Positions 4,114-56,737 are shown, counted from the stretch's first letter. The stretch is DNA of 64,000 nucleotides from a virus (IMGVR_UViG_3300028833_000108:1-64000); one strand, 5' to 3'. The notes: a model not told the origin generated them from the sequence alone. Program-made: numbers and translations.

Positions 4114-4157
4114 ATCGAATAGTCGTTTAATCTTGTAATTAAATTACATTTTTTCGA

Positions 4158-6678: not shown

Positions 6679-7344
6679 TTACCCATTCGTGTAATCGTCG
6701 TCGTTCAGTTGCTTTGCCAAGTCATCGACAGGCATTGAAGCGAAATCTTCCTCATCGGGCGTTACACCCATTTCGGCCTTTTCCTTTTCAAGCTTTTCCT
6801 CCTCGTCAATCTTCTTGTTTGCATCAATAGCGAACTCGTCGATGGATGAGTAGTTGTTCATCGTTCCTTCGTTCAGGGCGACAAACTTGATTTTCTTGCT
6901 ACGGGCAACCAGTTTGTTATGAGCCTGAATAAACGCACAGAACGTGATTTTTGCGAGGTAGTAATACGGGTCAACGTTCTTTGTCGTCTGCATCTTGACA
7001 GGGTCGAAGTTGTGGCTATGCTTGATAAGAAGTTCGATGGCACGGTCACGCATCTCCTGTTTCCAGTCGGGGGTGTAGCCACGCCACTTCTGGTTTCCTA
7101 GGTTCTTGTCGATAACAACGTTAAACACATAACCGAGTGCCTCTGACACGGGATAGTCCGTTCCGTACTTCTTTCGCATGTCTTTCAGCTCAACAAGCAA
7201 CTTGGTCAGAATTTCCTTGTCAATCTTGCCGCTTCTCATGCGGGCATCAAAAGCCTTCAACTGGTCTATTGTCCAGGAATAGCCGCTCTCGGGTATTTCA
7301 AAGTCAAGCGTGATTTCCGCATTGGTCGGTTCTACTTTTTCCAT
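6679..7344 (-). CDS. gp55: late-transcription sigma factor (T4 gp55-like)
   Basis: WRGYTPDWKQEM..AIE....HNFDP...PYYYL....AFIQ matches T4 gp55 FSGYT.SWKQEM...HNFD...NPHAY...AFVQ. Confidence 0.85.
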   Translation of the reverse strand: MEKVEPTNAEITLDFEIPESGYSWTIDQLKAFDARMRSGKIDKEILTKLLVELKDMRKKYGTDYPVSEALGYVFNVVIDKNLGNQKWRGYTPDWKQEMRDRAIELLIKHSHNFDPVKMQTTKNVDPYYYLAKITFCAFIQAHNKLVARSKKIKFVALNEGTMNNYSSIDEFAIDANKKIDEEEKLEKEKAEMGVTPDEEDFASMPVDDLAKQLNDDDYTNG

Positions 7345-7388
7345 ATTTTACTCATGGATTGAAACTCATAAGTAAAATACATTTTATT

Positions 7389-17432: not shown

Positions 17433-17441
17433 TAGTTTATA
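17433..17441 (-). promoter_or_regulatory. late promoter TATAAACTA
   Basis: Exact motif 22 nt upstream of the gp25-fusion gene. Confidence 0.75.
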
Positions 17442-18678: not shown

Positions 18679-18751
18679 GTTAATCCCTGTAAAATATAGG
18701 TACTTACGTCTTTAAAATACATTTTTCATGCGGCATTACGCAATCATAGGG

Positions 18752-18760
18752 TATAAACTA
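18752..18760 (+). promoter_or_regulatory. late promoter TATAAACTA
   Basis: Exact motif upstream of the small ORF and portal gene. Confidence 0.75.
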
Positions 18761-19010: not shown

Positions 19011-20726
19011 ATGATTTTTTCATCGAAAAAGAAGAAACAGCCTGAGAATATAGCGTCCATGGTCATGACGCATATCAGGGACTACGGCGAGAACAACCCG
19101 AAAGGCGAACTCTTTGACCGTGTCTTCAATGGTCAAGACCTGCACCGCAACATATCGAGGTCAAGGAATGCGATAGGACAGGGTGTCCAGCAGATGATGT
19201 ACCCGAACGGGTTGTCACCTGACGGATTCTCCACCTACATGCCGACCATCATGATTAACGATGGCCAGATTGACCCGACCAAGGTACAGGACACTATTGC
19301 CGAAAACCAGGTGCAACTCTACTGGCGAAACAACGTGGAACGCATGTTGAAGTACAACATCATAGCCACCCGTTCGGAAGTGAACGAATCGCTGACCCAG
19401 ATTTGCAACGAGGCTATCTACAAGGACGACAAGGGTGACATCTGCAGCTTGCAGGTCAACGAGTATTCCGAAATCGCCGAAGTGACCAAGATGAGCTTGC
19501 AGACAATCTTCAAGAGGGACGTTCTCCGCAAGATTTGCAACTTCAAGAACACCGCTTGGCAGTACATGAAAAAGATGCTGACCGAAGGCCGCATATTCCT
19601 TGAAGTCGTGTACGATGAGGAAACCCACGAAATCGTCGGTCTTAACCTCCTTCCTGGCGAAAACATGATTGTCGTCGTTCAGGACAACATGATTATCGGT
19701 TACAGACAGATGCTCACGGGCACATACGCCCATACCAGCAAGAACTACATCGACTACTCCCCGAACCAGATTTTGTTCCTTTCCCTCGACCTTTATGGCC
19801 CAGGTGGCGTAAACGACCCGAGGTCAATTCTCGAACCAGCAGTGAAGGCCCATAACCAGTTGAACACCATCGAGGATAGCGTAGTTATGTACCGTGTCCT
19901 TTGGGGTTCAGAAAAGATGGTTCTCAAAGTGGACGTTGCTGGCCAGCCGAAACCGCAGGCCGAAGCCACGATGAAGGAACAGGCAAAGCTGTTCAGCCGC
20001 CAGATTGACTACAACTCCACCACGGGTGAAATCACTAACTGGGGTAAAGCGATTGGCCTGACAGAACACTTTATCATCCCTGTTCAGGGTGGCTCGTCAG
20101 GTTCAGACATCACAAGGCTACCTGGCGGTGACCAGCTCGGTAACATCGACGACCTCAAATTCTTCAAACGAAATCTCGTTAACGCCTTGATGGTGCCCCC
20201 TGGCCGTATCACTGCTTTGGCAGGTGACGGTGTCAACTACTCCAACGGTAAGATTGGTGAAGTCACTCAGGCGGAAGTCGCTTTCGCCCGTCTCGTTGAC
20301 AGATACCAGACACCGTTTGAACAGGGCCTCGTCAGGCTGTTCATTATGGTGCTAAATACCAAGAGGGAGTTCAGTGACAGCATCAAGGTGGAAGAGAACT
20401 TCGACATCAAGTTCAAACGCAGCAACGGCTTCCAGAGCTATATCGATGCCGACGTTTGGACAACCAGACTTGCCGTGTTCTCCAGCATGATGGAATTTGC
20501 CGTTAAGGACGAAGCTCCGAACAACCCGCTTTCTCAGGAATACTGCCTCCGTTACGGTCTTGGCATTTCTGATGCAGACCTCACCCAGAACCGCAAGTGG
20601 CGTGACCACGAACAGAAGGTTCTCCTTGGTGAGGAAACCGATATGGACAGCGGTGAAGGTGGTGGCCTCGGCGATATGGGTGGCGGCGGTGGAATGGCCC
20701 CCGCACCTGAAACTGGAGCCTTCTAG
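19011..20726 (+). CDS. gp20: portal vertex protein (T4 gp20-like)
   Basis: EVNESLTQICNEAI, NQLNTIEDSVVMYR, ITRLPGGDQLGNIDDLKFF, AL.VP..R and EV.FAR motifs of the gp20 family. Confidence 0.93.
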   Translation: MIFSSKKKKQPENIASMVMTHIRDYGENNPKGELFDRVFNGQDLHRNISRSRNAIGQGVQQMMYPNGLSPDGFSTYMPTIMINDGQIDPTKVQDTIAENQVQLYWRNNVERMLKYNIIATRSEVNESLTQICNEAIYKDDKGDICSLQVNEYSEIAEVTKMSLQTIFKRDVLRKICNFKNTAWQYMKKMLTEGRIFLEVVYDEETHEIVGLNLLPGENMIVVVQDNMIIGYRQMLTGTYAHTSKNYIDYSPNQILFLSLDLYGPGGVNDPRSILEPAVKAHNQLNTIEDSVVMYRVLWGSEKMVLKVDVAGQPKPQAEATMKEQAKLFSRQIDYNSTTGEITNWGKAIGLTEHFIIPVQGGSSGSDITRLPGGDQLGNIDDLKFFKRNLVNALMVPPGRITALAGDGVNYSNGKIGEVTQAEVAFARLVDRYQTPFEQGLVRLFIMVLNTKREFSDSIKVEENFDIKFKRSNGFQSYIDADVWTTRLAVFSSMMEFAVKDEAPNNPLSQEYCLRYGLGISDADLTQNRKWRDHEQKVLLGEETDMDSGEGGGLGDMGGGGGMAPAPETGAF

Positions 20727-20758
20727 GAAAGCCAGCAGGATATGGCAGCTGCTCAATA

Positions 20759-20789
20759 GCCCTCGTACCAAGTACGGGGGTTTTGTTTT
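20759..20789 (+). terminator. rho-independent terminator after portal
   Basis: CCCTCGTAC-CAA-GTACGGGG stem followed by a T-tract. Confidence 0.75.
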
Positions 20790-20802
20790 AAGATATACCT
20801 AA

Positions 20803-20811
20803 TATAAACTA
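20803..20811 (+). promoter_or_regulatory. late promoter TATAAACTA
   Basis: Exact motif upstream of ORF 20837. Confidence 0.75.
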
Positions 20812-20836
20812 TAGACATATTTCCATTAGGTATAAA

Positions 20837-21475
20837 ATGAATAGACGTAAACTCTTTTTGGAATCTATCAGCAAGTTAGGATTGACAGCAAATCAGTTGA
20901 ACGGCGTTATCTCATTAATGGAATCCGTATTGAGTGACAATAACGATTTCGATGACGATGACGGGAACGAGCCCGATGAATGGAATTATATGGACTGGGA
21001 CGAGGCTGATAGACAGGCTTTTCACAAGCTCGAACAATTCTTTGTATCAACTAACGGTCAGCCATCTAAAATAATGTCTCTACTCAACGAAGCATGGGAT
21101 GACGAGCTTGATTGTTGTGGAATTGAAATTGAAGAGGAGCATGAATACAAACGCTCCAGAACCGACGGATTCCCAAACATTACCGTTATATTCTCTTGGA
21201 CTGAGGACTGGGATAAAGGCACAAGAGCTAAGGCAAAAGTAAATCTCCGCCTCAATTGGAAGGGTAAACTATCGTTCGTAATCTTCGATGCCCGTGGCCG
21301 AAATGTGAATCCGTATTTATACAAGTTCGACGGAAAAGATATAAGCCAGTTTGAGGACCACTATGAAGTATCACCAAAATACGGCATTGATGAGATTAAG
21401 GATTTCATAGATGAAGTCATAAGTAAAGTCCTCTTGTTTACGAGCCTCAACAAGGATTTCCTGTATAGACAGTGA
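20837..21475 (+). CDS. putative internal head protein with N-terminal targeting leader (212 aa)
   Basis: Late promoter; lies between portal and capsid genes; N-terminus aligns with the leader of the Nudix at 23184. Confidence 0.65.
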   Translation: MNRRKLFLESISKLGLTANQLNGVISLMESVLSDNNDFDDDDGNEPDEWNYMDWDEADRQAFHKLEQFFVSTNGQPSKIMSLLNEAWDDELDCCGIEIEEEHEYKRSRTDGFPNITVIFSWTEDWDKGTRAKAKVNLRLNWKGKLSFVIFDARGRNVNPYLYKFDGKDISQFEDHYEVSPKYGIDEIKDFIDEVISKVLLFTSLNKDFLYRQ

Positions 21476-21560
21476 TTTTAATTTCAATGCAGATTTTGAG
21501 GTAAAAATTTTTTTGTGAAAATACCTCAATAAACTTAAAGTAGAACTCAAACAGTGCCAG

Positions 21561-23069
21561 ATGGCACAGGATAACATTATGCAACAGTTCAGACCTAAGT
21601 CAGCTACGAGCAAGTGGGCTCCGATTTTGGAATCCAACCTTGGCCGTAAGCTCAAGTCCCGTGCTGAAGCTGCTGTGGTTTCCACTCTTCTCGAAACCCA
21701 GTGCAAGCTCAACAAGGGTTTCCTCCCCGAATCTGCTAACGTCTCTGCAGACGTGGCTCAGTATCAGCAGTACGCTTTGCCGCTGGTACGTCGTCAGTTC
21801 CCTGACTTGCTCGCTATGCAGACCGTGGCAACCATCCCGACCACTACCCCGAACGGTATCTACTTCGCACTCCGTTTCCTCTACGACGACGAAGCTCCGA
21901 AGACCGTTGGTTTCCGTCGTGGCTTGAAGAAAGAAATCGGTTACGACCTCGTTGCCGACCACACTGGTGTGAAGGGCACGTTCAACCCGTGGACAACGAC
22001 CGCTGGTGAAATGCTTTCCAACTATGCCGAAGGTACGTTCGGTGGCCCGTCTTTCGACGGCGTTGCTATGAACTCTGGCAACAAGGCTGGCGATGCTTAC
22101 CTCACCAACCACTGGATGGACAAGCCGGGCTTCGGTGACCAGTACGATGCCGAAGAAGGCCACTACAACATCAAGAAGGCCAGCATCAAGGTGGTGTCTG
22201 GTGCTATCCGCGTGGGTACAAAGGCTATCAAGAGCCACTACACCCTCGAACTCCAGCAGGATATGGCTGCTGCTCACGGACAGGACGTTGAAGCCCTGTT
22301 GCTCGAAGGCTTGCAGTTCGAAATCCAGCAGGAAATCGACCGTGAAATCCTCGCTGCTATGGTGTCTGTCGCTCAGAACCCGATGTTCGGTGGTGAAGCC
22401 GCTATCACGGTTGACCTCTCCAAGGACGCTCACTTCAACGATGGCCGTTGGGTTGCCGAACGCATCGCTGGTGGTATCGTGAACACGATTATCGCCGTTG
22501 CCCGTAAGATTTCTCTTACGACTCGTATGGGCTCTGGTAACTTCGCAATCTGCTCTCCGAGCATCGTTGCAGCTATCTCTACCCTTAACTCTGGTATCTA
22601 CATCCCGACTTACCTCGGTACGGATGCCGCTGTTCAGCCGGGTGGTGGCGTTTCCGACGCTGGTTCTCTCCTGAATGGTCAGATTAAGCTCTACCAGGAT
22701 ATCTACTCTTGGCAGGACTACGCTCTCGTTGGTTACAAGGGACCGCGCCAGGGCGAATCTGGTATCATCTTCATGCCTTACATCCCGTACATCTTCTGCA
22801 AGACCGCTGGTCAGGAAGACGGTAGCCCACGTCTCATCGTGAAGAGCCGTTACGCCATTGTCAGCAACTTGCTGGGTTGCGGCCTGTTCTACCGTGTTGT
22901 TCGCTTCGTGAACAACGACCTCTTGGGTGTTTCCTTCACTGGCGACATTCCTTGGGAATCTAACGAAGGCCCGACCGTGGGCGTAACCCTCGACACCGTT
23001 GGTGTTGCTGTGGGTGGCCACACGCTCGACCGTCCGTTCGGTACGGCTGCTGCGGAAGAAGAGTGGTAA
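21561..23069 (+). CDS. gp23: major capsid protein (T4 gp23-like)
   Basis: KWAPILE, LPLVRRQFPDLLA, GIYFALR, KSHYTLELQQDM.A.HG.D.E, EIDREI, VGYKG, PYIP and KSRYA motifs; strong codon bias. Confidence 0.96.
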   Translation: MAQDNIMQQFRPKSATSKWAPILESNLGRKLKSRAEAAVVSTLLETQCKLNKGFLPESANVSADVAQYQQYALPLVRRQFPDLLAMQTVATIPTTTPNGIYFALRFLYDDEAPKTVGFRRGLKKEIGYDLVADHTGVKGTFNPWTTTAGEMLSNYAEGTFGGPSFDGVAMNSGNKAGDAYLTNHWMDKPGFGDQYDAEEGHYNIKKASIKVVSGAIRVGTKAIKSHYTLELQQDMAAAHGQDVEALLLEGLQFEIQQEIDREILAAMVSVAQNPMFGGEAAITVDLSKDAHFNDGRWVAERIAGGIVNTIIAVARKISLTTRMGSGNFAICSPSIVAAISTLNSGIYIPTYLGTDAAVQPGGGVSDAGSLLNGQIKLYQDIYSWQDYALVGYKGPRQGESGIIFMPYIPYIFCKTAGQEDGSPRLIVKSRYAIVSNLLGCGLFYRVVRFVNNDLLGVSFTGDIPWESNEGPTVGVTLDTVGVAVGGHTLDRPFGTAAAEEEW

Positions 23070-23095
23070 TCACTCTCTCCCCTGCAAAGGAACTA

Positions 23096-23127
23096 AGGGA
23101 GCTTGCCTTCGGGCAGGCTCCTTTTTT
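23096..23127 (+). terminator. rho-independent terminator after gp23 (UUCG loop)
   Basis: GGAGCTTGCC-TTCG-GGCAGGCTCC-TTTTTT. Confidence 0.9.
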
Positions 23128-23147
23128 AGTTACCTGTATTTTTGTAA

Positions 23148-23156
23148 TATAAACTA
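23148..23156 (+). promoter_or_regulatory. late promoter TATAAACTA
   Basis: Exact motif upstream of the Nudix gene. Confidence 0.75.
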
Positions 23157-23183
23157 TCAGTAGAAAATTATAGGCCACAAAAG

Positions 23184-23768
23184 ATGACCCCAGAATACGC
23201 ACTAGATACATTCACCAAGTCTATTGGAAAGATACTCACTTCCAAAGCACAGTTGGAAGCGGTGACTGATTTGGCAAAGACACTGCTTGAATTTGCCGAC
23301 CCGAGGAACGATGTTGACCACCCGTCCTGCTCGTCAGGTCTACTCATCACAGATGGAAAGGTATTCCTAGCAGAACTCCCGACAGGAAACAAGAAAGGCA
23401 AGCCTCATCAGTACGACCTACCCAAGGGACATGTTGAGAACGATGGTGAAAGCGTAAAGGATGCTGCATTCAGGGAAGCATTGGAGGAAACTGGGTACAA
23501 CTGGCACAAGTATTACAACGATGCCCACGGAATTTTCCGTAAACAGGTGCCCTTCCGTAAAGGAAACAACCTGATGCTTTATCGGATAAACCTGAAAGAA
23601 CTTCCACCGCTGACATCATATTCATGCAAGTCCTACTTCCATGACCCGAAGAAGAACGCCGCTATGCCAGAGGCTTGCTCTTACGAATATCTTCCGTTGA
23701 AGGAAATCGGAAAGTGGCTATGGCCTGAGTTCGATAAGACATTCAAGAGGGAAGGAATCAATTTCTGA
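23184..23768 (+). CDS. nudE: NudE-like Nudix hydrolase with N-terminal extension (late copy)
   Basis: Nudix box LPKGHVE.DGES..DAAFREALEETG and C.SYF...PE pattern as in T4 NudE. Confidence 0.85.
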   Translation: MTPEYALDTFTKSIGKILTSKAQLEAVTDLAKTLLEFADPRNDVDHPSCSSGLLITDGKVFLAELPTGNKKGKPHQYDLPKGHVENDGESVKDAAFREALEETGYNWHKYYNDAHGIFRKQVPFRKGNNLMLYRINLKELPPLTSYSCKSYFHDPKKNAAMPEACSYEYLPLKEIGKWLWPEFDKTFKREGINF

Positions 23769-23771
23769 GAA

Positions 23772-23787
23772 TGTTTCACGTGAAACA
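23772..23787. other. parS: parS centromere-like palindrome TGTTTCACGTGAAACA
   Basis: Perfect match to the canonical chromosomal parS consensus; the palindrome extends to 20 bp (23770-23789); intergenic. Confidence 0.75.
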
Positions 23788-23789
23788 TT

Positions 23790-23824
23790 AAAAGCCCCCG
23801 TGTAACACGGAGGCTTTCTTGTTT
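23790..23824. terminator. bidirectional terminator between convergent genes
   Basis: AAAAGCCCCCGTG-TAA-CACGGAGGCTTT stem with A/T tracts on both sides. Confidence 0.75.
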
Positions 23825-23837
23825 GTGTGGAGGTTTC

Positions 23838-24041
23838 TTAAATCTTTCCTACACTGTCATTTTTAAAGACAGCGTACTCACCAGCAAGACCATCAAGTTT
23901 CCAAGAGGTTACCACCGCCTTTACCTGTTCCCGTGTATCGGCAAGACCAAACTTGGCTCCTCGCTCGTTTGATGCACCAAGTATGATAAAATACTTAGAG
24001 CCAGTGTCCAACAATGTTCCTTTCTTTATTCGTTTTGCCAT
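23838..24041 (-). CDS. small hypothetical protein
   Basis: Start MAKRIKK with a GAGGA SD. Confidence 0.6.
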   Translation of the reverse strand: MAKRIKKGTLLDTGSKYFIILGASNERGAKFGLADTREQVKAVVTSWKLDGLAGEYAVFKNDSVGKI

Positions 24042-24052
24042 AATGTCCTCTC

Positions 24053-25405
24053 TTACCAAGCACCTGCAGCAGTCACCTGAGTACTCTCTTCGGTCGTCTT
24101 TGGCTCTTCTGTTGTTTTCTTGGTATACTTACGTTTTTCCTTGACTTCGGTCTTTGGCTCGTCTGGGTCTGGAACGACTGGCGTTTCAGGAAGTTCTCCC
24201 TGATGAACCTCACCCACTTCCTTCTTCATTTCCTCGTCCAAAACAGGGTTTCCAGGAATGGCTGGTTCATTGGTCAAACGGGAACATTCATCCAGCACTG
24301 CTGACATCTTACCGACAGTTTCCTTAGCGTCAATGCTGGACAGGTAATTCTTTTCCATGTCAGCTTCGTTCGGACGCAGGTTCAATGACATTGCGTCAAC
24401 AGGAGGATTGATGGGAACATTGCGTTCAGCAGGCTTCTGCTTACCCCAGTTATCCATGGACTCCTTCAAACTATCGCCGACACCCATACAGTTATCAGTG
24501 ACTACACGAGACTTATCGTACTGACGAAGACTTTCTTTCACTTCCTTGTCTTGTTCGGCTTCGGCACGTGAGACAGCTTCGTTGAAGATTTGAAGGGCTG
24601 ACGGATTGTCCTTCAATTCATCCTGCAGCAACTTCTTCTTTCTATCCGATTTGCCGAATTGGATATATGAACGTGCAAGTGACAATCCGATGAGCTTATT
24701 CGATTGTTCTTTCAGAGCCTCAGTTGCGCCATTCTGAATGGCCACATTGATTGCAACTCTAATGGAATCAATTTCCTTTTCGAGTTCATCAGACCTGGCG
24801 ATATCCCAGCAAGGACTTCCAAGGGTTTTCATCATACCCAAGTTCTTTGCGGCCTTCTTCACAGCATCGGGATTTTCCTTCACCAAGTTACGAATTGGTT
24901 CTGGATTACCTCCACCGAGGTCAATGTTGTTGAACAACTTGTCTGGGTCCGACTCTATGGTCTGGTTCGGCTTCATGAACGGGTCGGAAAGGATTTTTGC
25001 CTTCGCTGGAACATTTCCATTCATTCTCTGGAAGGTGTAGTCCTGCATGTTGCAAAACTCGTTAGGACCCTTCGGTTTCGGAATCAGGCTGGATTTCAAC
25101 GAACTGTTGTCGTTCGGATGGAAAACCTGCTGGAAAACATAGTTGCTAAAATCAATGTCCTGCTGTGTCACCATCGGGTGCGGGCCAGGTGCTGGCCACG
25201 GCTGAGGACGTGGCGGGAACTGGTTGGTCTGGTTTGACCACAGGGCAGGCGGGGTCGGACGCTTCGGCTGACCTGGCATTGTTGGCATAGGCATGGTTGG
25301 GCCCGTCGGGTGTTCATCCTTGTAGATATGCTTGACTGTTGCACCGATGTCGTACACAGCCTTCGCAAGATTTTCCATGATGCTTAGGATTTTTTCGTTA
25401 TTCAT
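24053..25405 (-). CDS. hypothetical protein with Pro-rich and low-complexity regions (450 aa)
   Basis: Long ORF with a GAGGA SD. Confidence 0.75.
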   Translation of the reverse strand: MNNEKILSIMENLAKAVYDIGATVKHIYKDEHPTGPTMPMPTMPGQPKRPTPPALWSNQTNQFPPRPQPWPAPGPHPMVTQQDIDFSNYVFQQVFHPNDNSSLKSSLIPKPKGPNEFCNMQDYTFQRMNGNVPAKAKILSDPFMKPNQTIESDPDKLFNNIDLGGGNPEPIRNLVKENPDAVKKAAKNLGMMKTLGSPCWDIARSDELEKEIDSIRVAINVAIQNGATEALKEQSNKLIGLSLARSYIQFGKSDRKKKLLQDELKDNPSALQIFNEAVSRAEAEQDKEVKESLRQYDKSRVVTDNCMGVGDSLKESMDNWGKQKPAERNVPINPPVDAMSLNLRPNEADMEKNYLSSIDAKETVGKMSAVLDECSRLTNEPAIPGNPVLDEEMKKEVGEVHQGELPETPVVPDPDEPKTEVKEKRKYTKKTTEEPKTTEESTQVTAAGAW

Positions 25406-25895
25406 GATTGTCCTCGTTATTGGTGTTTTTGGTTGAATCCTTTTCTACGACCTTAGTGCAAACATAATCCAGTAAACCGGCGACATCAAATCCATAGATG
25501 TCTTTAAGGTCCTGAGTGCAGTCTGCCTCGGGTTCGTTACTAATCTTATTGCACAAGTCGAGATAGGAATCGAGCTCCTTCTTCCTGGCAATAGCGTATG
25601 CCTTCAAAATCTTGAACTCATCTGCAGTTAGATTACTCAGATTGAAATCATAGTTTCCTTCGCCATGATTAGTGGTGGCTTTTCTCAGGATTTTGATGAG
25701 TTGGTCTCTCGCCTCGACACGCTTCTCGCTCGCATCCCATTCTTCCTTGGAATGTAGCTGATACATTGCCTCGTTTTTTGCTTTCTTGAACTTCTTCGCT
25801 TTACGGAACACCCACCATTCACGGATGAGCATGGCGATGAAGCCAAACACATGCATCGAGACAATGAAGCCGACTATAAGTATAATAGATTTCAT
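25398..25895 (-). CDS. membrane-anchored hypothetical protein (165 aa)
   Basis: N-terminal TM segment followed by a basic stop-transfer sequence RKAKKFKK. Confidence 0.7.
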   Translation of the reverse strand: MKSIILIVGFIVSMHVFGFIAMLIREWWVFRKAKKFKKAKNEAMYQLHSKEEWDASEKRVEARDQLIKILRKATTNHGEGNYDFNLSNLTADEFKILKAYAIARKKELDSYLDLCNKISNEPEADCTQDLKDIYGFDVAGLLDYVCTKVVEKDSTKNTNNEDNHE

Positions 25896-26347
25896 TTGCT
25901 TTCCTGGAACAATCCGAGTCTGTCGAATGTGCGGCTATATCCTTTGAACAGCCATTTCCTGATTTCGGAAAGCGGCTTGTATTCGTAGGCGATAACCTCG
26001 GGAACATTCTTTCCCGTTCTCTTGTCTGGGAAGAAGCTCTGGCACTTGTACTCGCCGATATCAGGCATTTCATCCTTCTTCAAGTCAAGGCGATAAAGGA
26101 CAATCTGCTTGCCCTTGATATAACTTACAGGTGCGTCACACAAAGCGATTGCACGTTCCTTATAAGAATCAAAATCGTACCCAGTCTCTTCCTTAGCTTC
26201 TCTAAATGCAGTGCCCCTAAAGTCACTGTCGAAATCCTCGACGTGACCCTTGGGCAAATCAAAATGGTGTTCACCAGGCGTCTGGTGCAACGGCAGCTCA
26301 ACCAGGAACTTCTCGCCGTCGGTTATTAAAAGGCCAGCCGATACCAT
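25892..26347 (-). CDS. nudE: NudE-like Nudix hydrolase (early/middle paralog, no leader)
   Basis: Nudix box LPKGHVE....FRGTAFREAKEETG; start moved to ATG 26347 (GGAGG SD); colinear with the 23184 copy. Confidence 0.85.
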   Translation of the reverse strand: MVSAGLLITDGEKFLVELPLHQTPGEHHFDLPKGHVEDFDSDFRGTAFREAKEETGYDFDSYKERAIALCDAPVSYIKGKQIVLYRLDLKKDEMPDIGEYKCQSFFPDKRTGKNVPEVIAYEYKPLSEIRKWLFKGYSRTFDRLGLFQESK

Positions 26348-26397
26348 ATCGGTTTCCTCCAATCTTTATTCTTCCTTAAAATATATTATTCAGCAGC

Positions 26398-26428
26398 AAA
26401 AAAGCCGACCGTCATTGCAGGTCGGCTT
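26398..26428 (-). terminator. rho-independent terminator after MFS gene
   Basis: AAGCCGACC/GGTCGGCTT stem with a U-tract on the minus strand. Confidence 0.75.
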
Positions 26429-26448
26429 AAAACAGGGTAAAATACAGT

Positions 26449-27576
26449 CTATTTCTTGCTCAGGTACAGCAACAGAAGGTTGAAACCATACAGTATGAAG
26501 CATGTGATGAACAAGGTATCTACTGGTAGCTGCTTCAAGAAGAGCGAAGCTATGCCTGCAATACCCCATGCGCTCAATGTCAGGGAATGGATTGTAGAGG
26601 TGTTCGTTATGCCGTACTTACTTGCGAGCAGGGCAGGCAAAGCGGAGAAGCCGCCACCATAACATGCGTTGATGAGCATGACGCTGACAACGAACAGGCC
26701 TAGTCCAGCAAAGCCGAAGTTAATCAAGCATAGAATAGAACTCAGTGCGAACAGGATGATATAAGGAGTGTATCGACCGAACTTGTCGCTAACCCAAGCA
26801 AATCCGAACCGACCACCAGCGTTGAAAACAGCACTCAATGTACACAGCAAGGTTGCCATCCCGATTGCCACTCCATAGTGGGAATAAAGCTGAGCTTCCT
26901 GACTGATGAAGGCTAGGCCGCAAGCGATGTTGAGGAAGAAGAACAACCAGATTGAAATGTAAGGCAATGTTCGGACAGTATTCCCGATATTGATTGTCTC
27001 AACCATAGGCGGTTTGTAATTGACAGGGAACTTCCTGAACAGGAACGATGTCACGATAAGCGGAACAGTATAGATTAGAGCAAGGAGATAGAACACTTGG
27101 TCGATAGCATAGTTTGAAGTAAGGTATGTGTACAGAGGGCTCGCAACGGATTTTGCCAACCCGAAGGATAGGATGGCAATGGCAGATGCGACCGCCTTGT
27201 TATGACGGAAGTATAGCATCAGCGTCTTGATTGGGGCAACATACCCGAGGCCACACGAGCATCCGAACAAAACTCCGTATGCGGCATAGAACATCCAGAC
27301 GCTTCCTACGCTGCAAGCGAAACCGCTCAGGAGGAATCCAGCTATGAATAAAATCACCGACATAACGTAGGTTGCCTTCGGGTTCCTTTCTACAAACTTT
27401 CCCATGAAAGCTGCAGACAGTCCGAGGAACAGAATGGCCAACGAGAAGGCGAACGACATGTCATGGTTGAGAACCGAGTTGACAGCGTTGGAGAGAAGAG
27501 ACCAGGCATAAACCTGACCGATACATAATGAAAGAAGGACGGTTGCAAGCACCGTCCTAATTTGTAGAATTTTCAT
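26449..27576 (-). CDS. MFS transporter, OFA (oxalate/formate antiporter)-like
   Basis: About 12 TM segments; IGQVYAWS, GLGYVAP, FNAGGR..AWVSDKFGR, CYGGGFS.LPA and LSAWGIAG motifs. Confidence 0.88.
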   Translation of the reverse strand: MKILQIRTVLATVLLSLCIGQVYAWSLLSNAVNSVLNHDMSFAFSLAILFLGLSAAFMGKFVERNPKATYVMSVILFIAGFLLSGFACSVGSVWMFYAAYGVLFGCSCGLGYVAPIKTLMLYFRHNKAVASAIAILSFGLAKSVASPLYTYLTSNYAIDQVFYLLALIYTVPLIVTSFLFRKFPVNYKPPMVETINIGNTVRTLPYISIWLFFFLNIACGLAFISQEAQLYSHYGVAIGMATLLCTLSAVFNAGGRFGFAWVSDKFGRYTPYIILFALSSILCLINFGFAGLGLFVVSVMLINACYGGGFSALPALLASKYGITNTSTIHSLTLSAWGIAGIASLFLKQLPVDTLFITCFILYGFNLLLLYLSKK

Positions 27577-27604
27577 GTTGAATGGTGTTTGTTACACCAA
27601 GAGT

Positions 27605-28585
27605 TTATAGTGCAGGATTTTCGTCATCCTCTACGAACGTACCGTTGATTTGCTGTTCGATGTAAGGGATTGACTTCGCAATCATTTCCAGAGCAGCCTT
27701 TTCATCAACAGCCTGACCACCGCAAGCAAGTCCGTGACCGCCCATAGAAACTGCACCAGGGGTAGTCGATTCAATCTTCTTTGCGAACTTGTCAAAGGAA
27801 ATCTTGTCGTTGTAACCACGGAACATCAAACCGATGTTGTGAGCCTTGTTGTTATTATAGATGTTAATCCAGTAGTTGTACTTCTTGCTATCCTGAATAC
27901 GGAGGCCAACTTCGGTAGAACGCTTGTCACAACGGGTCAACACGCCGCCAGAAGGAAGGTCAGTAAACTGCAGGTTGTTATAGATATCATTAACTTCGTT
28001 TTCAATCTTGTCGAGAACTACGATGTCGTCTTCGGTCAAGTTGGTATGGCCATCCTTGTAGGCTTCAATCCAAGCATCGAAATTGAGCTTGTACTTTTCC
28101 TTGAACAGCATGTTCAGTTTACATGCGTGTTCGAAGCGTTCCATATCAGTTCTAACCCAACGGTCAAACGTGTCGATGTAACCGATGAGTTCTTCGAGGT
28201 AGGAAATGTCCTTGACATCTTGGTAGAAATCATAGGTAAGACGGGCGCCGCAAGCAGACTTGTCGATAATTATTGCATTTGACGGGTCGTTAAGAGCAGA
28301 TGCACTAGCATGGTGGTCAAGAACCATGGTAGGAATGCCAGTTGCACGAACATTGTCCATGAAGGTCGCTGGCGTATAATCGGTAAAGATGATGGCGTTG
28401 TACTGTTCCTTGTTCGGAATGGTGTTGAATGTCAAGAGGTCATTATCCTTTCCGTAGTACATCTTGGCGTACTTTGCGTTAGGAAAGATTGTCTTGATGA
28501 TAAGATGGGAGCCGACTCCATCAAGGTCATAATGCGTGCAGTTGAGCACGTTCATGTTAGGATTTTTGAAGTATTGGATATCCAT
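27605..28585 (-). CDS. DHH/DHHA1 phosphoesterase
   Basis: THYDLDG, IFTD, LDHH and C-terminal GGHGLACG motifs. Confidence 0.88.
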   Translation of the reverse strand: MDIQYFKNPNMNVLNCTHYDLDGVGSHLIIKTIFPNAKYAKMYYGKDNDLLTFNTIPNKEQYNAIIFTDYTPATFMDNVRATGIPTMVLDHHASASALNDPSNAIIIDKSACGARLTYDFYQDVKDISYLEELIGYIDTFDRWVRTDMERFEHACKLNMLFKEKYKLNFDAWIEAYKDGHTNLTEDDIVVLDKIENEVNDIYNNLQFTDLPSGGVLTRCDKRSTEVGLRIQDSKKYNYWINIYNNNKAHNIGLMFRGYNDKISFDKFAKKIESTTPGAVSMGGHGLACGGQAVDEKAALEMIAKSIPYIEQQINGTFVEDDENPAL

Positions 28586-35328: not shown

Positions 35329-35337
35329 TAGTTTATA
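35329..35337 (-). promoter_or_regulatory. late promoter TATAAACTA
   Basis: Exact motif, intergenic. Confidence 0.75.
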
Positions 35338-36866: not shown

Positions 36867-36906
36867 TAAAAATGTAATTTAATGTTGAATATTGAGGGAT
36901 ATTATT

Positions 36907-38274: not shown

Positions 38275-38301
38275 CAGAATAGCCAAAAAACAATATAATT
38301 T

Positions 38302-38330
38302 AGTGGGAGCCCAATCGGGTTCCCACTTTT
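38302..38330 (+). terminator. rho-independent terminator
   Basis: AGTGGGAGCCC-AATC-GGGTTCCCACT-TTT. Confidence 0.75.
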
Positions 38331-41743: not shown

Positions 41744-41782
41744 AAATATATTTTACCCAGTAGATTGAACTACTGGGTATTT

Positions 41783-44499: not shown

Positions 44500-44546
44500 A
44501 TTGGAATAATGTATTTTAATAACGAAAGTAAACTGATGGAAGTCTT

Positions 44547-50876: not shown

Positions 50877-50922
50877 TAGTTTATATTGCGTGCAGAAAAG
50901 CATGTCGCTACATTATAAACTA
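50877..50922. promoter_or_regulatory. divergent pair of late promoters TATAAACTA (- 50877-50885; + 50914-50922)
   Basis: Two exact copies back to back in the intergenic region. Confidence 0.75.
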
Positions 50923-55115: not shown

Positions 55116-55124
55116 TATAAACTA
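55116..55124 (+). promoter_or_regulatory. late promoter TATAAACTA
   Basis: Exact motif. Confidence 0.75.
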
Positions 55125-56728: not shown

Positions 56729-56737
56729 TATAAACTA
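56729..56737 (+). promoter_or_regulatory. late promoter TATAAACTA
   Basis: Exact motif upstream of gp6. Confidence 0.75.

Follow-up and report, generated by a model that had tools for sequence, protein, structure and literature searches.

The internal proteins of phage T4 have a single feature in common, the N-terminal tag known as the CTS (available text of PMC3012670). The tag is found on the otherwise unrelated late proteins IPI-III and Alt, is 10 residues long, and is removed by the protease gp21; IPII and IPIII do not differ over these 10 residues, which end in F-I-A-E. Giant phages use propeptides longer than the T4 tag, which are cut at x-x-E, and in the large phages SPN3US, phiKZ and 201phi2-1 many head proteins carry N-terminal propeptides alongside a T4-like protease (available text of PMC5694885). 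T4 also encodes a Nudix hydrolase, NudE.1 (gene e.1), which acts in vitro on ADP-ribose, Ap3A, FAD, NAD and NAD-capped RNA and is inactivated by E64,65Q (available text of bioRxiv 10.1101/2024.04.04.588121). The T4 nudE gene is present in one copy, encodes no N-terminal extension, and lies two genes away from the internal-protein genes ipIII and ipII; its family is not known as T4 head cargo. Packaging and injection of T4-NudE-like proteins were proposed by Iyer, Burroughs, Anantharaman and Aravind in 2022, based on location in late clusters and on fusions to MuF, portal and capsid protease (available text of PMC9503650). Another comparison is offered by the decapping enzymes of poxviruses, which are eukaryotic viruses. 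There, D9 is early and D10 post-replicative. Both are Nudix enzymes, paralogous and encoded in one genome (available text of PMC7575113); they concern m7G caps and have no targeting leader, and their likeness to the pair described below is an analogy of logic, not of descent.

The locus analysed here comes from a T4-like giant phage of about 400 kb from ruminant gut communities, represented by a fragment of 99.7 kb; the window, that is, the whole stretch of DNA under analysis, covers 64,000 nucleotides (IMGVR_UViG_3300028833_000108:1-64000). No near-identical DNA was found in the phage collection by a DNA similarity search, and the capsid protein of the phage has only about 30% identity to anything deposited. 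Two genes for NudE-type Nudix hydrolases, N1 and N2, are present in the window:

23184..23768, plus strand: N1, NudE-type Nudix hydrolase with an N-terminal leader (ORF, 194 aa)
23184..23291, plus strand: leader module of N1, codons 1-36, ending T-L-L-E, homologous to the N-termini of other late proteins
23292..23327, plus strand: linker of N1, codons 37-48, between leader and Nudix domain, with the lowest pLDDT
23328..23765, plus strand: Nudix catalytic domain of N1, residues 49-194, aligning with N2 and T4 NudE
25892..26347, minus strand: N2, leaderless NudE-type Nudix hydrolase (ORF, 151 aa, GGAGG ribosome-binding site)

The initial annotation had described two colinear NudE-like paralogs on opposite strands, one with a leader of about 47 aa and the other starting directly at its catalytic domain, and all of the motifs it listed were found. 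N1 and N2 are paralogs, aligning colinearly with 66 identities over 146 residues (45%, E 3e-43, BLASTP). Residue 49 of N1 aligns with residue 2 of N2, which leaves N1 with an N-terminal extension of 47 residues that N2 lacks. The longest frame of N2 spans 25892..26362 on the minus strand, and translation probably begins at the ATG at 26347, which follows GGAGG by 8 nt, in agreement with the start that had been assigned to N2. Both proteins exceed the Pfam NUDIX (PF00293) cut-off of 21.1 bits, N1 with 39.9 bits (E 5.3e-10) and N2 with 33.8 bits (E 3.9e-8), and the pair matches phrog_1185 (E 1.8e-13 for N1 and 2.8e-13 for N2).

The Nudix box has the consensus G-x5-E-x7-R-E-U-x-E-E-x-G-U. R-E-x-x-E-E-T-G-Y is intact in N1 and N2, including both of the glutamates changed in the E64,65Q mutant of T4 NudE.1, and residues R97, E98, E101, E102 and G104 of N1 are invariant. 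In N1 the spacing from the Gly to the first Glu of the box is longer by one residue, and the first Glu is missing in N2, as in T4 NudE itself; judging from the alignment, the N-terminal part of the box is a family-specific variant, and the core catalytic part is present. The likeness to T4 NudE.1 further includes the same family, about 30% identity in the tblastn comparison, the same PHROG and shared invariant residues. A tblastn search matched 846 phage records, and among the matches listed most are annotated as nudE or Nudix hydrolase, with about 30% identity (best E 1e-7), and NudE of phage IME08 ranked second in the BFVD fold search (E 9.8e-10). No solved structure matched N1 by sequence at E <= 0.01. 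Foldseek against the PDB returned generic Nudix folds only, with Dcp2, RppH and an Ap4A hydrolase at the top, so that the substrate is not fixed by these matches. By analogy with the family, ADP-ribose, NAD, NAD-capped RNA, Ap3A or FAD could be substrates of the predicted activities of N1 and N2; Ap4A, ADP-ribose derivatives, NAD caps and immune signals, as suggested in the initial annotation, would be an extrapolation from T4 NudE.1. The two domains differ in pI, 8.66 for that of N1 versus 5.62 for N2. Both proteins also match, weakly, a portal-protein PHROG with a Nudix stretch, which is consistent with the proposal of Iyer et al.

In the AF2 model of N1 (pLDDT 86.5) the leader has two helices, residues 3-15 and 21-38, and linker residues 43-45 fall below a pLDDT of 50; the model suggests a separate helical hairpin joined to the Nudix domain by a low-confidence linker. 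With its amphipathic, charged sequence, the leader does not qualify as a signal peptide or as a membrane anchor. TLLEF(A/V)DPRN is invariant in 15/15 N1 orthologs, and the leader has a dN/dS of 0.10-0.33 with third-position bias; by these codon patterns it is translated and under purifying selection. An internal start was considered for N1 and rejected, as codon 1 is followed by no other in-frame ATG before the domain begins, and the late promoter motif described below stands at the canonical distance from codon 1. The T-L-L-E at the end of the leader is a putative prohead-protease site, with a predicted cut after E36.

The first 36 residues of the extension are a conserved N-terminal module on at least five late proteins encoded in the 99.7-kb fragment, in which a leader profile search found 5 strong N-terminal copies. 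In a complete 422-kb relative the profile matches at 19 places, and in another relative at 12. Seventeen of the places in the 422-kb relative were examined: 16 are N-terminal, and the late motif lies within 60 nt of 12 of the 17 and the other promoter motif within 60 nt of none. In public data, the profile matches 101 of 1.84 billion cluster representatives (E <= 1e-3); 96 representatives have 106 leader matches, of which 76 start within 10 residues of the N-terminus and 30 are internal. These internal copies resemble the propeptides hundreds of residues long that occur in SPN3US, phiKZ and 201phi2-1; those phages are, however, of another lineage, and the available text of PMC5694885 neither reports their propeptides as one conserved portable module nor describes a Nudix cargo. 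The module usually ends with hydrophobic-hydrophobic-Glu, then Gly, Ser or Ala. Position 33, the last leader position, is Glu in 79/96 representatives, with F/L/M/Y before it and G/S/A after it, and the terminal Glu is missing in 5 of 24 aligned leaders. Position 7 is near-invariant (Phe in 94/96). A Pfam search of the 24 leaders alone gave chance-level matches only. The cargoes are diverse: an SLT transglycosylase domain was found in 4 of the 99 representatives scanned, peptidoglycan-binding cargoes also occur, and most have no Pfam domain, as was also the case for each of 6 further tagged proteins searched (none in 6/6). SLT transglycosylase activity is found in ejected phage proteins, e.g. 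T7 gp16.

The conservation of this module bears on one alternative explanation, namely that a housekeeping enzyme for nucleotide sanitising or NAD salvage was duplicated in the ordinary way, giving two copies that differ only in dose or timing and an extension on N1 that is incidental. Nudix enzymes are common in large myoviruses (available text of PMC9503650), the same lineage also encodes a NadM-like Nudix protein adjoining a phosphoribosyltransferase gene, and the mutant phenotype of T4 NudE.1 is only mild (available text of bioRxiv 10.1101/2024.04.04.588121). Against these points, the extension is conserved and under selection, with homologues at the N-termini of many other late proteins, and N1 sits in the tree on a long stem branch (1.71 changes/site, support 95/93) after which it is almost frozen, which fits a changed role. 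We consider a housekeeping duplication quite improbable. N1 and its leader are present in 14/14 related loci; N2 is intact in 10 of these, disrupted in 1 and past the end of the sequence examined in 3, and in relatives it has 92-99% identity and never a leader. The disrupted N2, that of L015, is split by an insert with methyltransferase-like and transposase-like ORFs (names read from the sequences); a group I/II intron was considered as the cause and rejected, there being no Rfam match.

A protease of the type that removes the T4 tag is encoded by the phage: Peptidase_S77 (T4 gp21) was detected with 53.1 bits at G000 81926-82459 (phrog_207 E 2.7e-31), the protease itself occupying G000 81899-82645, and the gene was found in 5/5 related records. 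The leader is like the CTS in being an N-terminal tag on otherwise unrelated late proteins, in ending with hydrophobic-x-Glu in a phage that encodes a gp21-family protease, and in having Phe at position 7, as the T4 tag does. It differs in its length of 36 residues and its predicted two-helix hairpin, and in that the targeting role is putative and the cargo N1 is an enzyme. Comparison of the leader profile by hhalign with T4 core proteins (gp67 E 0.05, gp68 E 0.15, gp22 E 0.07) and with T4 IPIII (E 0.73) gave no significant similarity, and it is therefore proposed that the leader works like the T4 tag, not that it is a member of that family. Hydrophobic-x-Glu triplets also occur within the Nudix domains of both N1 and N2, so the motif alone is weak evidence of cleavage. 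In the mature parts of tagged proteins, no avoidance of cleavage-like motifs was found, with 8 observed versus 8.1 expected for the strict form and 92 versus 72, hence no depletion, for the loose form. The likeliest role of the N1 leader is that of a capsid-targeting propeptide.

The same observations could be explained differently if the leader were a prohead-core (scaffold-like) assembly module, with N1 either degraded or expelled at maturation or kept in the head undelivered, so that its role would lie in assembly or inside the capsid rather than at time zero in a newly infected cell. One further tagged gene of the window is relevant here:

20837..21475, plus strand: 212-aa acidic protein with the same leader, between the portal and capsid genes (leader profile E 4.4e-17)

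This ORF, which has the late motif 34 nt upstream, stands where T4 has its core genes 67 and 68, and its ortholog P0053 matches Pfam GP67 weakly, with 22.7 bits where the cut-off is 27; the product of the ORF is a possible prohead-core protein. Small acidic proteins with hardly anything beyond the leader and an acidic tail exist (ORF 20837, P0053, P0017 and P0056), and in T4 cleavage of the core proteins yields fragments which exit the head (available text of PMC5694885). For N1 itself, in contrast, the Nudix domain has a dN/dS of 0.01-0.03 and keeps all catalytic residues, which is hard to explain for a scaffold, and the similarity of the leader to gp67 is the non-significant one given above. 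A role of the leader in the prohead core, without delivery of N1, is accordingly rated as unlikely, and a capsid-targeting propeptide is retained as the preferred reading.

The arrangement of the genes and signals around the pair is as follows:

21561..23069, plus strand: major capsid protein of the T4 gp23 family, directly upstream of N1 (Pfam Gp23 E 3.6e-64)
23095..23124, plus strand: terminator-like hairpin between the capsid gene and N1 (13-bp stem, then a T run)
23148..23157, plus strand: late-type promoter motif TATAAACTAT, 36 nt before the N1 start, recognised by copy count and fixed spacing
23794..23816, no strand assigned: probable bidirectional terminator, a hairpin where the N1 gene and the N2 operon converge
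23838..25895, minus strand: three genes downstream of N2 (165/450/73 aa) with overlapping stop/start codons
26377..26386, minus strand: second-class (pre-late) promoter motif ATATATTTTA, 39 nt before the N2 start, of the class ATRTAWTTTA
26398..26426, minus strand: hairpin and T run separating an MFS gene from the N2 promoter, read from sequence and conserved in relatives
6679..7344, minus strand: gp55-like late sigma factor gene (phrog_234 E 2.1e-12), with the N2-class motif 38 nt upstream

The order of capsid gene and N1 is kept in 14/14 loci, and the hairpin between them (23095..23124) has compensatory stem changes in relatives. N2 and the three genes downstream of it probably form one operon; no Pfam family was found in these three genes, which vary among relatives (40-98% identity, or absent).

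As a motif, the late promoter that the initial annotation placed before N1 is confirmed. The window has 9 copies of TATAAACTA, including the one at 23148-23156, versus 0.29 expected, and 9 copies were reached in 0/100 shuffles; TATAAACTAT precedes structural genes at fixed spacing; among the TATAAAC sites of the 99.7-kb genome, 15/22 sit 31-43 nt before an ATG. The genes behind the late motif include those for the capsid protein (variant motif), two baseplate wedge proteins and a tail fibre protein, as well as the protease operon. Late-like motifs are also found before the MFS and DHH genes, for which a virion role is not obvious, so the late motif by itself does not mean a virion protein. Upstream of N1 the motif is kept in 12/14 related loci while the flanks diverge; the L015/L016 clade lacks a late motif dedicated to N1, and N1 there overlaps with the gene that precedes it. 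The second class, ATRTAWTTTA, has 8 copies versus 0.57 expected and is also found upstream of the gp55-like and DHFR-like genes; upstream of N2 it is conserved in 9 loci, with a variant form in L015/L016. Of the two motifs, the late one precedes 20 of 73 crude gene calls and the second precedes 9, with no gene call behind both. The late/early split suggested at the outset is thus borne out to the extent that the two copies sit behind different promoter-motif classes, each conserved in relatives. Because N2 has no leader and stands behind the promoter class of the late sigma gene, it would be made in the cell before the late genes, and "early" is used for N2 in this sense. In four metatranscriptome runs compared with 20700-27700, the word depth of the capsid gene was far above that of its neighbours (contigs only, with no starts, strands or timing), and N1 and N2 were each touched by low-depth contigs that could be DNA carry-over.

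The genomic context also bears on the possibility that the leader has nothing to do with the virion and is an oligomerisation, localisation or auto-inhibitory tag, with N1 acting in the late-infected cell, e.g. on nucleotide pools or RNA caps before lysis. Packaging of N1 is a prediction, the cleavage-like motif is not avoided in mature regions, some of the profile matches are internal, and the SLT and peptidoglycan-binding cargoes could suit a lysis-related set. Yet one tagged gene lies between the portal and capsid genes and another beside the prohead protease gene; N1 follows the capsid gene in 14/14 loci; the tag ends in the type of motif cut by the protease family that the phage encodes; and the amphipathic, charged leader is no signal peptide or membrane anchor. 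A tag unrelated to the virion therefore seems improbable to us.

The reading that we favour, with a probability of roughly 0.55, is that N1 is a late, leader-targeted, cleaved, packaged and injected Nudix hydrolase and N2 its leaderless, pre-late copy. If the leader is a capsid-targeting propeptide, N1 would be a packaged and injected enzyme, and the combination of a late promoter with a clip-off tag common to late proteins makes it probable that N1 is taken up by the capsid and delivered along with the DNA. In the proposed sequence of events, N1 would be read from the late promoter class, beside the capsid gene; the phage would place the 36-residue two-helix leader on many otherwise unrelated late proteins, N1 among them; cleavage by the gp21-type prohead protease would fall directly behind the conserved hydrophobic-hydrophobic-Glu, whose Glu is E36 in N1; and mature N1, of about 18 kDa, would remain inside the head until it passes, together with the DNA, into the next cell. 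N2 would be made inside the infected cell, before the late genes. Head-packaged NudE-like enzymes had already been proposed (Iyer et al., 2022, available text of PMC9503650), and what is new here is that the leader on N1 is a module common to many late proteins. The link to the head would accordingly be a separate, putative clip-off leader instead of a fusion to a head protein, and the leaderless paralog in the same genome is an internal control. Unlike T4, which has its single NudE.1, this phage has two copies, with N1 behind its own late promoter directly after the capsid gene.

A wider reading, which we hold to be possible rather than probable, is that the leader is the portable loading code of a clade of rumen T4-like phages of about 400 kb, which would bring some 15-19 proteins per genome into the capsid, among them a NudE-type enzyme, lytic transglycosylases anchored in the membrane, and proteins of 1,300 residues without known function. 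NudE would have been duplicated so that one copy is pre-loaded, and this copy could destroy NAD- or ADP-ribose-derived immune signals or NAD caps in the first seconds, before phage gene expression. N1 and N2 would then be a natural tagged/untagged control, in which delivery by the virion would depend on the tag and on nothing else.

Should the tag function in the proposed way, the injected cargo of widespread, uncultured giant rumen phages would become definable from sequence alone, and most of the leader-tagged cargo is without known function. The 36-residue module would, if portable, be a candidate for loading foreign proteins into capsids, a purpose that the T4 tag has served. The action of a pre-loaded Nudix enzyme against nucleotide-based immunity would likewise become sharply testable, with tagged and untagged copies in one genome.

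The initial annotation had described two colinear NudE-like paralogs on opposite strands, with a leader of ~47 aa on the copy at 23184 and none on that at 26347. Both points were confirmed: the leader-bearing gene (N1) and its leaderless paralog (N2) encode colinear proteins with 66/146 identities (E 3e-43), and the start of N2 aligns after 47 extra N-terminal residues of N1.

The Nudix pair and adjoining genes
23184..23768, + strand: N1, 194 aa
23838-25895, - strand: genes between N1 and N2, encoding proteins of 165 aa (hydrophobic helix at the N-terminus), 450 aa (proline-rich) and 73 aa
25892..26347, - strand: N2, 151 aa, counted from the ATG after GGAGG
26449-27576, - strand: major-facilitator-superfamily (MFS) transporter, adjoining N2
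27605-28585, - strand: DHH-family phosphoesterase, in the same group adjoining N2

Both N1 and N2 passed the Pfam NUDIX model and matched phrog_1185, and the nudE genes of T4-like phages showed ~30% identity to each of them. Alignment with T4 NudE revealed that R-E-x-x-E-E-T-G and other family-invariant residues were kept in both paralogs; it was reported for T4 NudE.1 that changing the Glu pair (E64,65Q) abolished activity (bioRxiv 10.1101/2024.04.04.588121). The N1 domain is basic (pI 8.66) whereas N2 is acidic (pI 5.62), which weakly fits residence of N1 beside DNA.

The source viral record (99,696 bases, with the window as its first 64 kb) was rated 24% complete by CheckV; related records are 277-422 kb long, and one of 422,150 bases with terminal repeats (G001) was rated complete. 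The phage encodes a T4 gp23-family capsid protein, a portal protein, baseplate wedge proteins, a gp55-like late sigma factor and UvsX-, Dda- and DnaB-like replication proteins, and a gp21-type prohead protease is encoded outside the window in the same record. The capsid protein shares ~30% identity at most with any deposited phage, and a DNA-level search of deposited phages with the window gave zero matches. Sequencing runs containing parts of the window were labelled as sheep, bovine or unspecified gut metatranscriptomes. In two runs from two different studies, an RNA-library contig of the capsid gene stopped at 23043, which is 26 nt short of the stop codon, and continued into adapter sequence; this could reflect a processing site or an assembly artefact.

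Two motifs were enriched in the window: TATAAACTA, with 9 copies versus 0.29 expected, and ATRTAWTTTA with an A-rich run ahead, with 8 copies versus 0.57 expected.

Copies of the two motifs in the window
TATAAACTA(T), intergenic: 17433-17441, 18752-18760, 20803-20811, 23148-23156, 35329-35337, 50877-50885, 50914-50922, 55116-55124, 56729-56737
ATRTAWTTTA: 4140-4149, 7373-7382, 18713-18722, 26377-26386, 36872-36881, 38293-38302, 41746-41755, 44509-44518

The spacing of TATAAACTA(T) to start codons is near-fixed at 31-43 nt (over the whole record, 15/22 TATAAAC sites lie at this distance ahead of an ATG), and a Shine-Dalgarno sequence is missing from most downstream genes. Annotated genes preceded by the motif include those for the capsid protein (variant AATAAACTT), two baseplate wedge proteins and a collagen-repeat tail fibre protein, together with the protease operon. 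TATAAACTA resembles the T4 late promoter, TATAAATA, and a sigma factor of gp55-like type is encoded as well; TATAAACTA(T) is most likely the late promoter of this phage clade. The late promoter previously noted before the 23184 copy was recovered as a motif, TATAAACTA lying 36 nt before the N1 ATG, beyond a strong terminator 3' of the capsid gene. It is kept in 12/14 related loci despite diverged flanks; in two relatives, L015 and L016, N1 overlaps an upstream gene instead of having the motif.

The second motif lies 39 nt ahead of the N2 start. At distances of 35-50 nt it also precedes the start codons of the gp55-like gene, a DHFR-like gene and several replication-cluster genes of unknown function. 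It is retained upstream of N2 in 9 loci, a variant form being present in L015 and L016, where N2 is on the same strand as N1. The motif lacks a conserved upstream element and is similar to the Bacteroidota -7 box TAnnTTTG. The late sigma factor, whose gene carries this motif, must be made before the late genes, from which we infer that the class is pre-late. The late motif preceded 20 of 73 crude gene calls and the second motif 9, and no call had both. Late-like motifs (TATAAACTC and AATAAACTAT) were also found 33 nt before the MFS transporter and DHH phosphoesterase genes, so the motif tells to which transcription class a gene belongs and does not show that its product is in the virion. The MFS transporter next to N2, a membrane protein that this virulent-type phage has behind a late-type motif, is kept in relatives.

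The leader of N1 is translated. Among seven representative N1 orthologs, dN/dS was 0.10-0.33 for codons 1-47 versus 0.01-0.03 for the Nudix domain, third codon positions accounted for 36/62 variable leader columns, and no in-frame ATG was found between codon 1 and the domain. The stretch T-L-L-E-F-(A/V)-D-P-R-N is invariant in 15/15 N1 sequences, with the first 30 residues variable. In the AlphaFold2 model of N1, based on a 19-row alignment (mean pLDDT 86.5), residues 3-15 and 21-38 are helical, the linker has low confidence, with pLDDT under 50 at residues 43-45, and the Nudix fold is confident from residue 49 on. As helix 2 ends at 38 beside this flexible linker, the predicted prohead-protease cut after E36, the last residue of the leader module, would fall at the helix end. 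Fold matches were generic Nudix enzymes: Dcp2 and RppH headed the list in the PDB, and phage Nudix proteins, one NudE among them, did so in BFVD.

A leader-only search of related genomes matched the N-terminus of another protein. Four such sequences were made into a profile, and iterating it over the six-frame translation brought up additional copies with E-values of 1e-16 to 1e-25. Five proteins of the 99,696-base record begin with the module.

Leader-bearing proteins of the record
20837: 212-aa acidic protein, between the portal and capsid genes
23184..23768, + strand: N1, Nudix
65803..66870: 355-aa protein
80874..: 246-aa protein, adjoining the prohead protease
93393..: 1,346-aa protein

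The late motif lies 34-39 nt before four of these five genes, and the fifth is directly 3' of a late-motif gene. In the complete relative, the profile matched 19 places at E <= 0.05; of the 17 fetched, 16 were N-terminal, 12 had the late motif within 60 nt and none had the second motif. In L015 and L016, the leader is also present on the product of the gene that separates N1 from the capsid gene. At E <= 1e-3, 101 of 1.84 billion cluster representatives matched; five were multi-stretch repeat proteins and were treated as spurious, and positions were counted on the other 96. Profile position 7 is Phe in 94/96 and position 33 is Glu in 79/96, with F/L/M/Y before and G/S/A after; the final Glu is missing in 5/24 aligned leaders. 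Most hits (76/106) begin within the first 10 residues; the other 30 are internal, which could mean that propeptides are long, that starts are mis-called or that the module is used differently. In some proteins the module lies at about residue 256-330, and about eight representatives form a group in which it begins at residue 71-82. Proteins with such internal copies include L023 1182-2963 (-) in G001 and representatives P0088, P0096, P0105 and P0081; they may have long propeptides, fused upstream domains or mis-called starts. Six further tagged proteins matched no Pfam family and gave one marginal PHROG hit. An SLT lytic transglycosylase domain was detected in 4/99 representatives, each with a hydrophobic stretch after the leader, and weak peptidoglycan-binding matches in 3/99, with nothing in most. 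No model covered the leader in a Pfam search.

Tags of the T4 capsid targeting sequence (CTS) type are textbook knowledge, and the T4 sequence is removed by gp21. The T4 internal proteins are diverse, and the CTS, their sole common part, directs entry into the scaffolding core (PMC3012670); in SPN3US and other giant phages the propeptides are longer and are cut at x-x-Glu (PMC5694885). Packaging of N1 is proposed here based on one tag shared by unrelated late proteins, its terminal hydrophobic-hydrophobic-Glu, a gp21-family protease (found in 5/5 related records) and the location of tagged genes inside the head module. By analogy, the leader would bring N1 into the prohead, N1 would be trimmed after E36 and delivered with the DNA, and N2 would be made in the cell before the late genes. 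The earlier interpretation, one enzyme packaged and injected and the other made during infection, is supported in part, by the differing promoter-motif classes of N1 and N2 and by the leader being a translated module common to late proteins.

In many leaders the first nine residues (…Φ-F-x-E-S) look like a second T4-CTS-like site, and the 10-residue starting tag of T4 IPII and IPIII, with Glu at its end, likewise has Phe at position 7. The resemblance is not statistically significant, homology of the leader to T4 gp67, gp68, gp22 and IPIII is not detectable, and the only hint comes from an ortholog of the 20837 protein, whose match to Pfam GP67 is sub-threshold. Mature parts of tagged proteins show no depletion of the cleavage-like motif, and similar triplets also occur inside the Nudix domains. 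In T4 (L046, 62000-68500), nudE is two genes from ipIII and ipII, in the order nudE, e, ipIII, ipII, denV. Head packaging of T4-NudE-like proteins was proposed by Iyer et al. from late-cluster location and from MuF, portal and protease fusions (PMC9503650).

A maximum-likelihood tree of 23 rows placed the N1 orthologs in one clade (support 95/93), whose stem is long (1.71 changes per column), and leaderless proteins of more distant relatives grouped with N2 or were unplaced. T4 NudE was very distant, and since its branch was flagged as long the tree is treated as unrooted. Apart from fragments, the leader-Nudix architecture was found in two 90%-identity clusters only, which have 282 and 20 members. 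Most simply, this lineage would have duplicated a leaderless NudE gene, and one of the copies would have acquired a pre-existing leader and late promoter, then changed fast and later been frozen. In L015, a ~3.7-kb insert (L015 7614-11319) interrupts N2 within the Nudix box and N1 is intact; the insert matched no intron family, and its ORFs, named from sequence, are a 560-aa methyltransferase-like, a 133-aa and a 405-aa transposase-like one. The stretch 23838-25895 is a local hypervariable island, its genes being 40-98% identical among relatives or absent, with flanking N1, N2 and MFS conserved.

In the open-access literature searched, neither the leader nor a comparable phage Nudix pair was found described. 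The 36-residue leader family, outside every Pfam and PHROG model, appears to be new, as do its large cargo set and the combination of tagged and untagged Nudix paralogs with different promoter classes. T4 NudE.1 was reported to hydrolyse ADP-ribose, Ap3A, FAD and NAD and to decap NAD-RNA in vitro; an inactive mutant delayed lysis by about 15 minutes (bioRxiv 10.1101/2024.04.04.588121). The complete relative has a third Nudix gene (G001 323524-324579; L045 524-1579), encoding a 351-aa NadM-like adenylyltransferase-Nudix protein (cytidylyltransferase-Nudix fusion), which adjoins a YqeY-like gene and one of the nicotinate/nicotinamide phosphoribosyltransferase family. Together they are probably an NAD salvage module, and the NadM-like Nudix and phosphoribosyltransferase genes indicate that NAD metabolism matters to the lineage.
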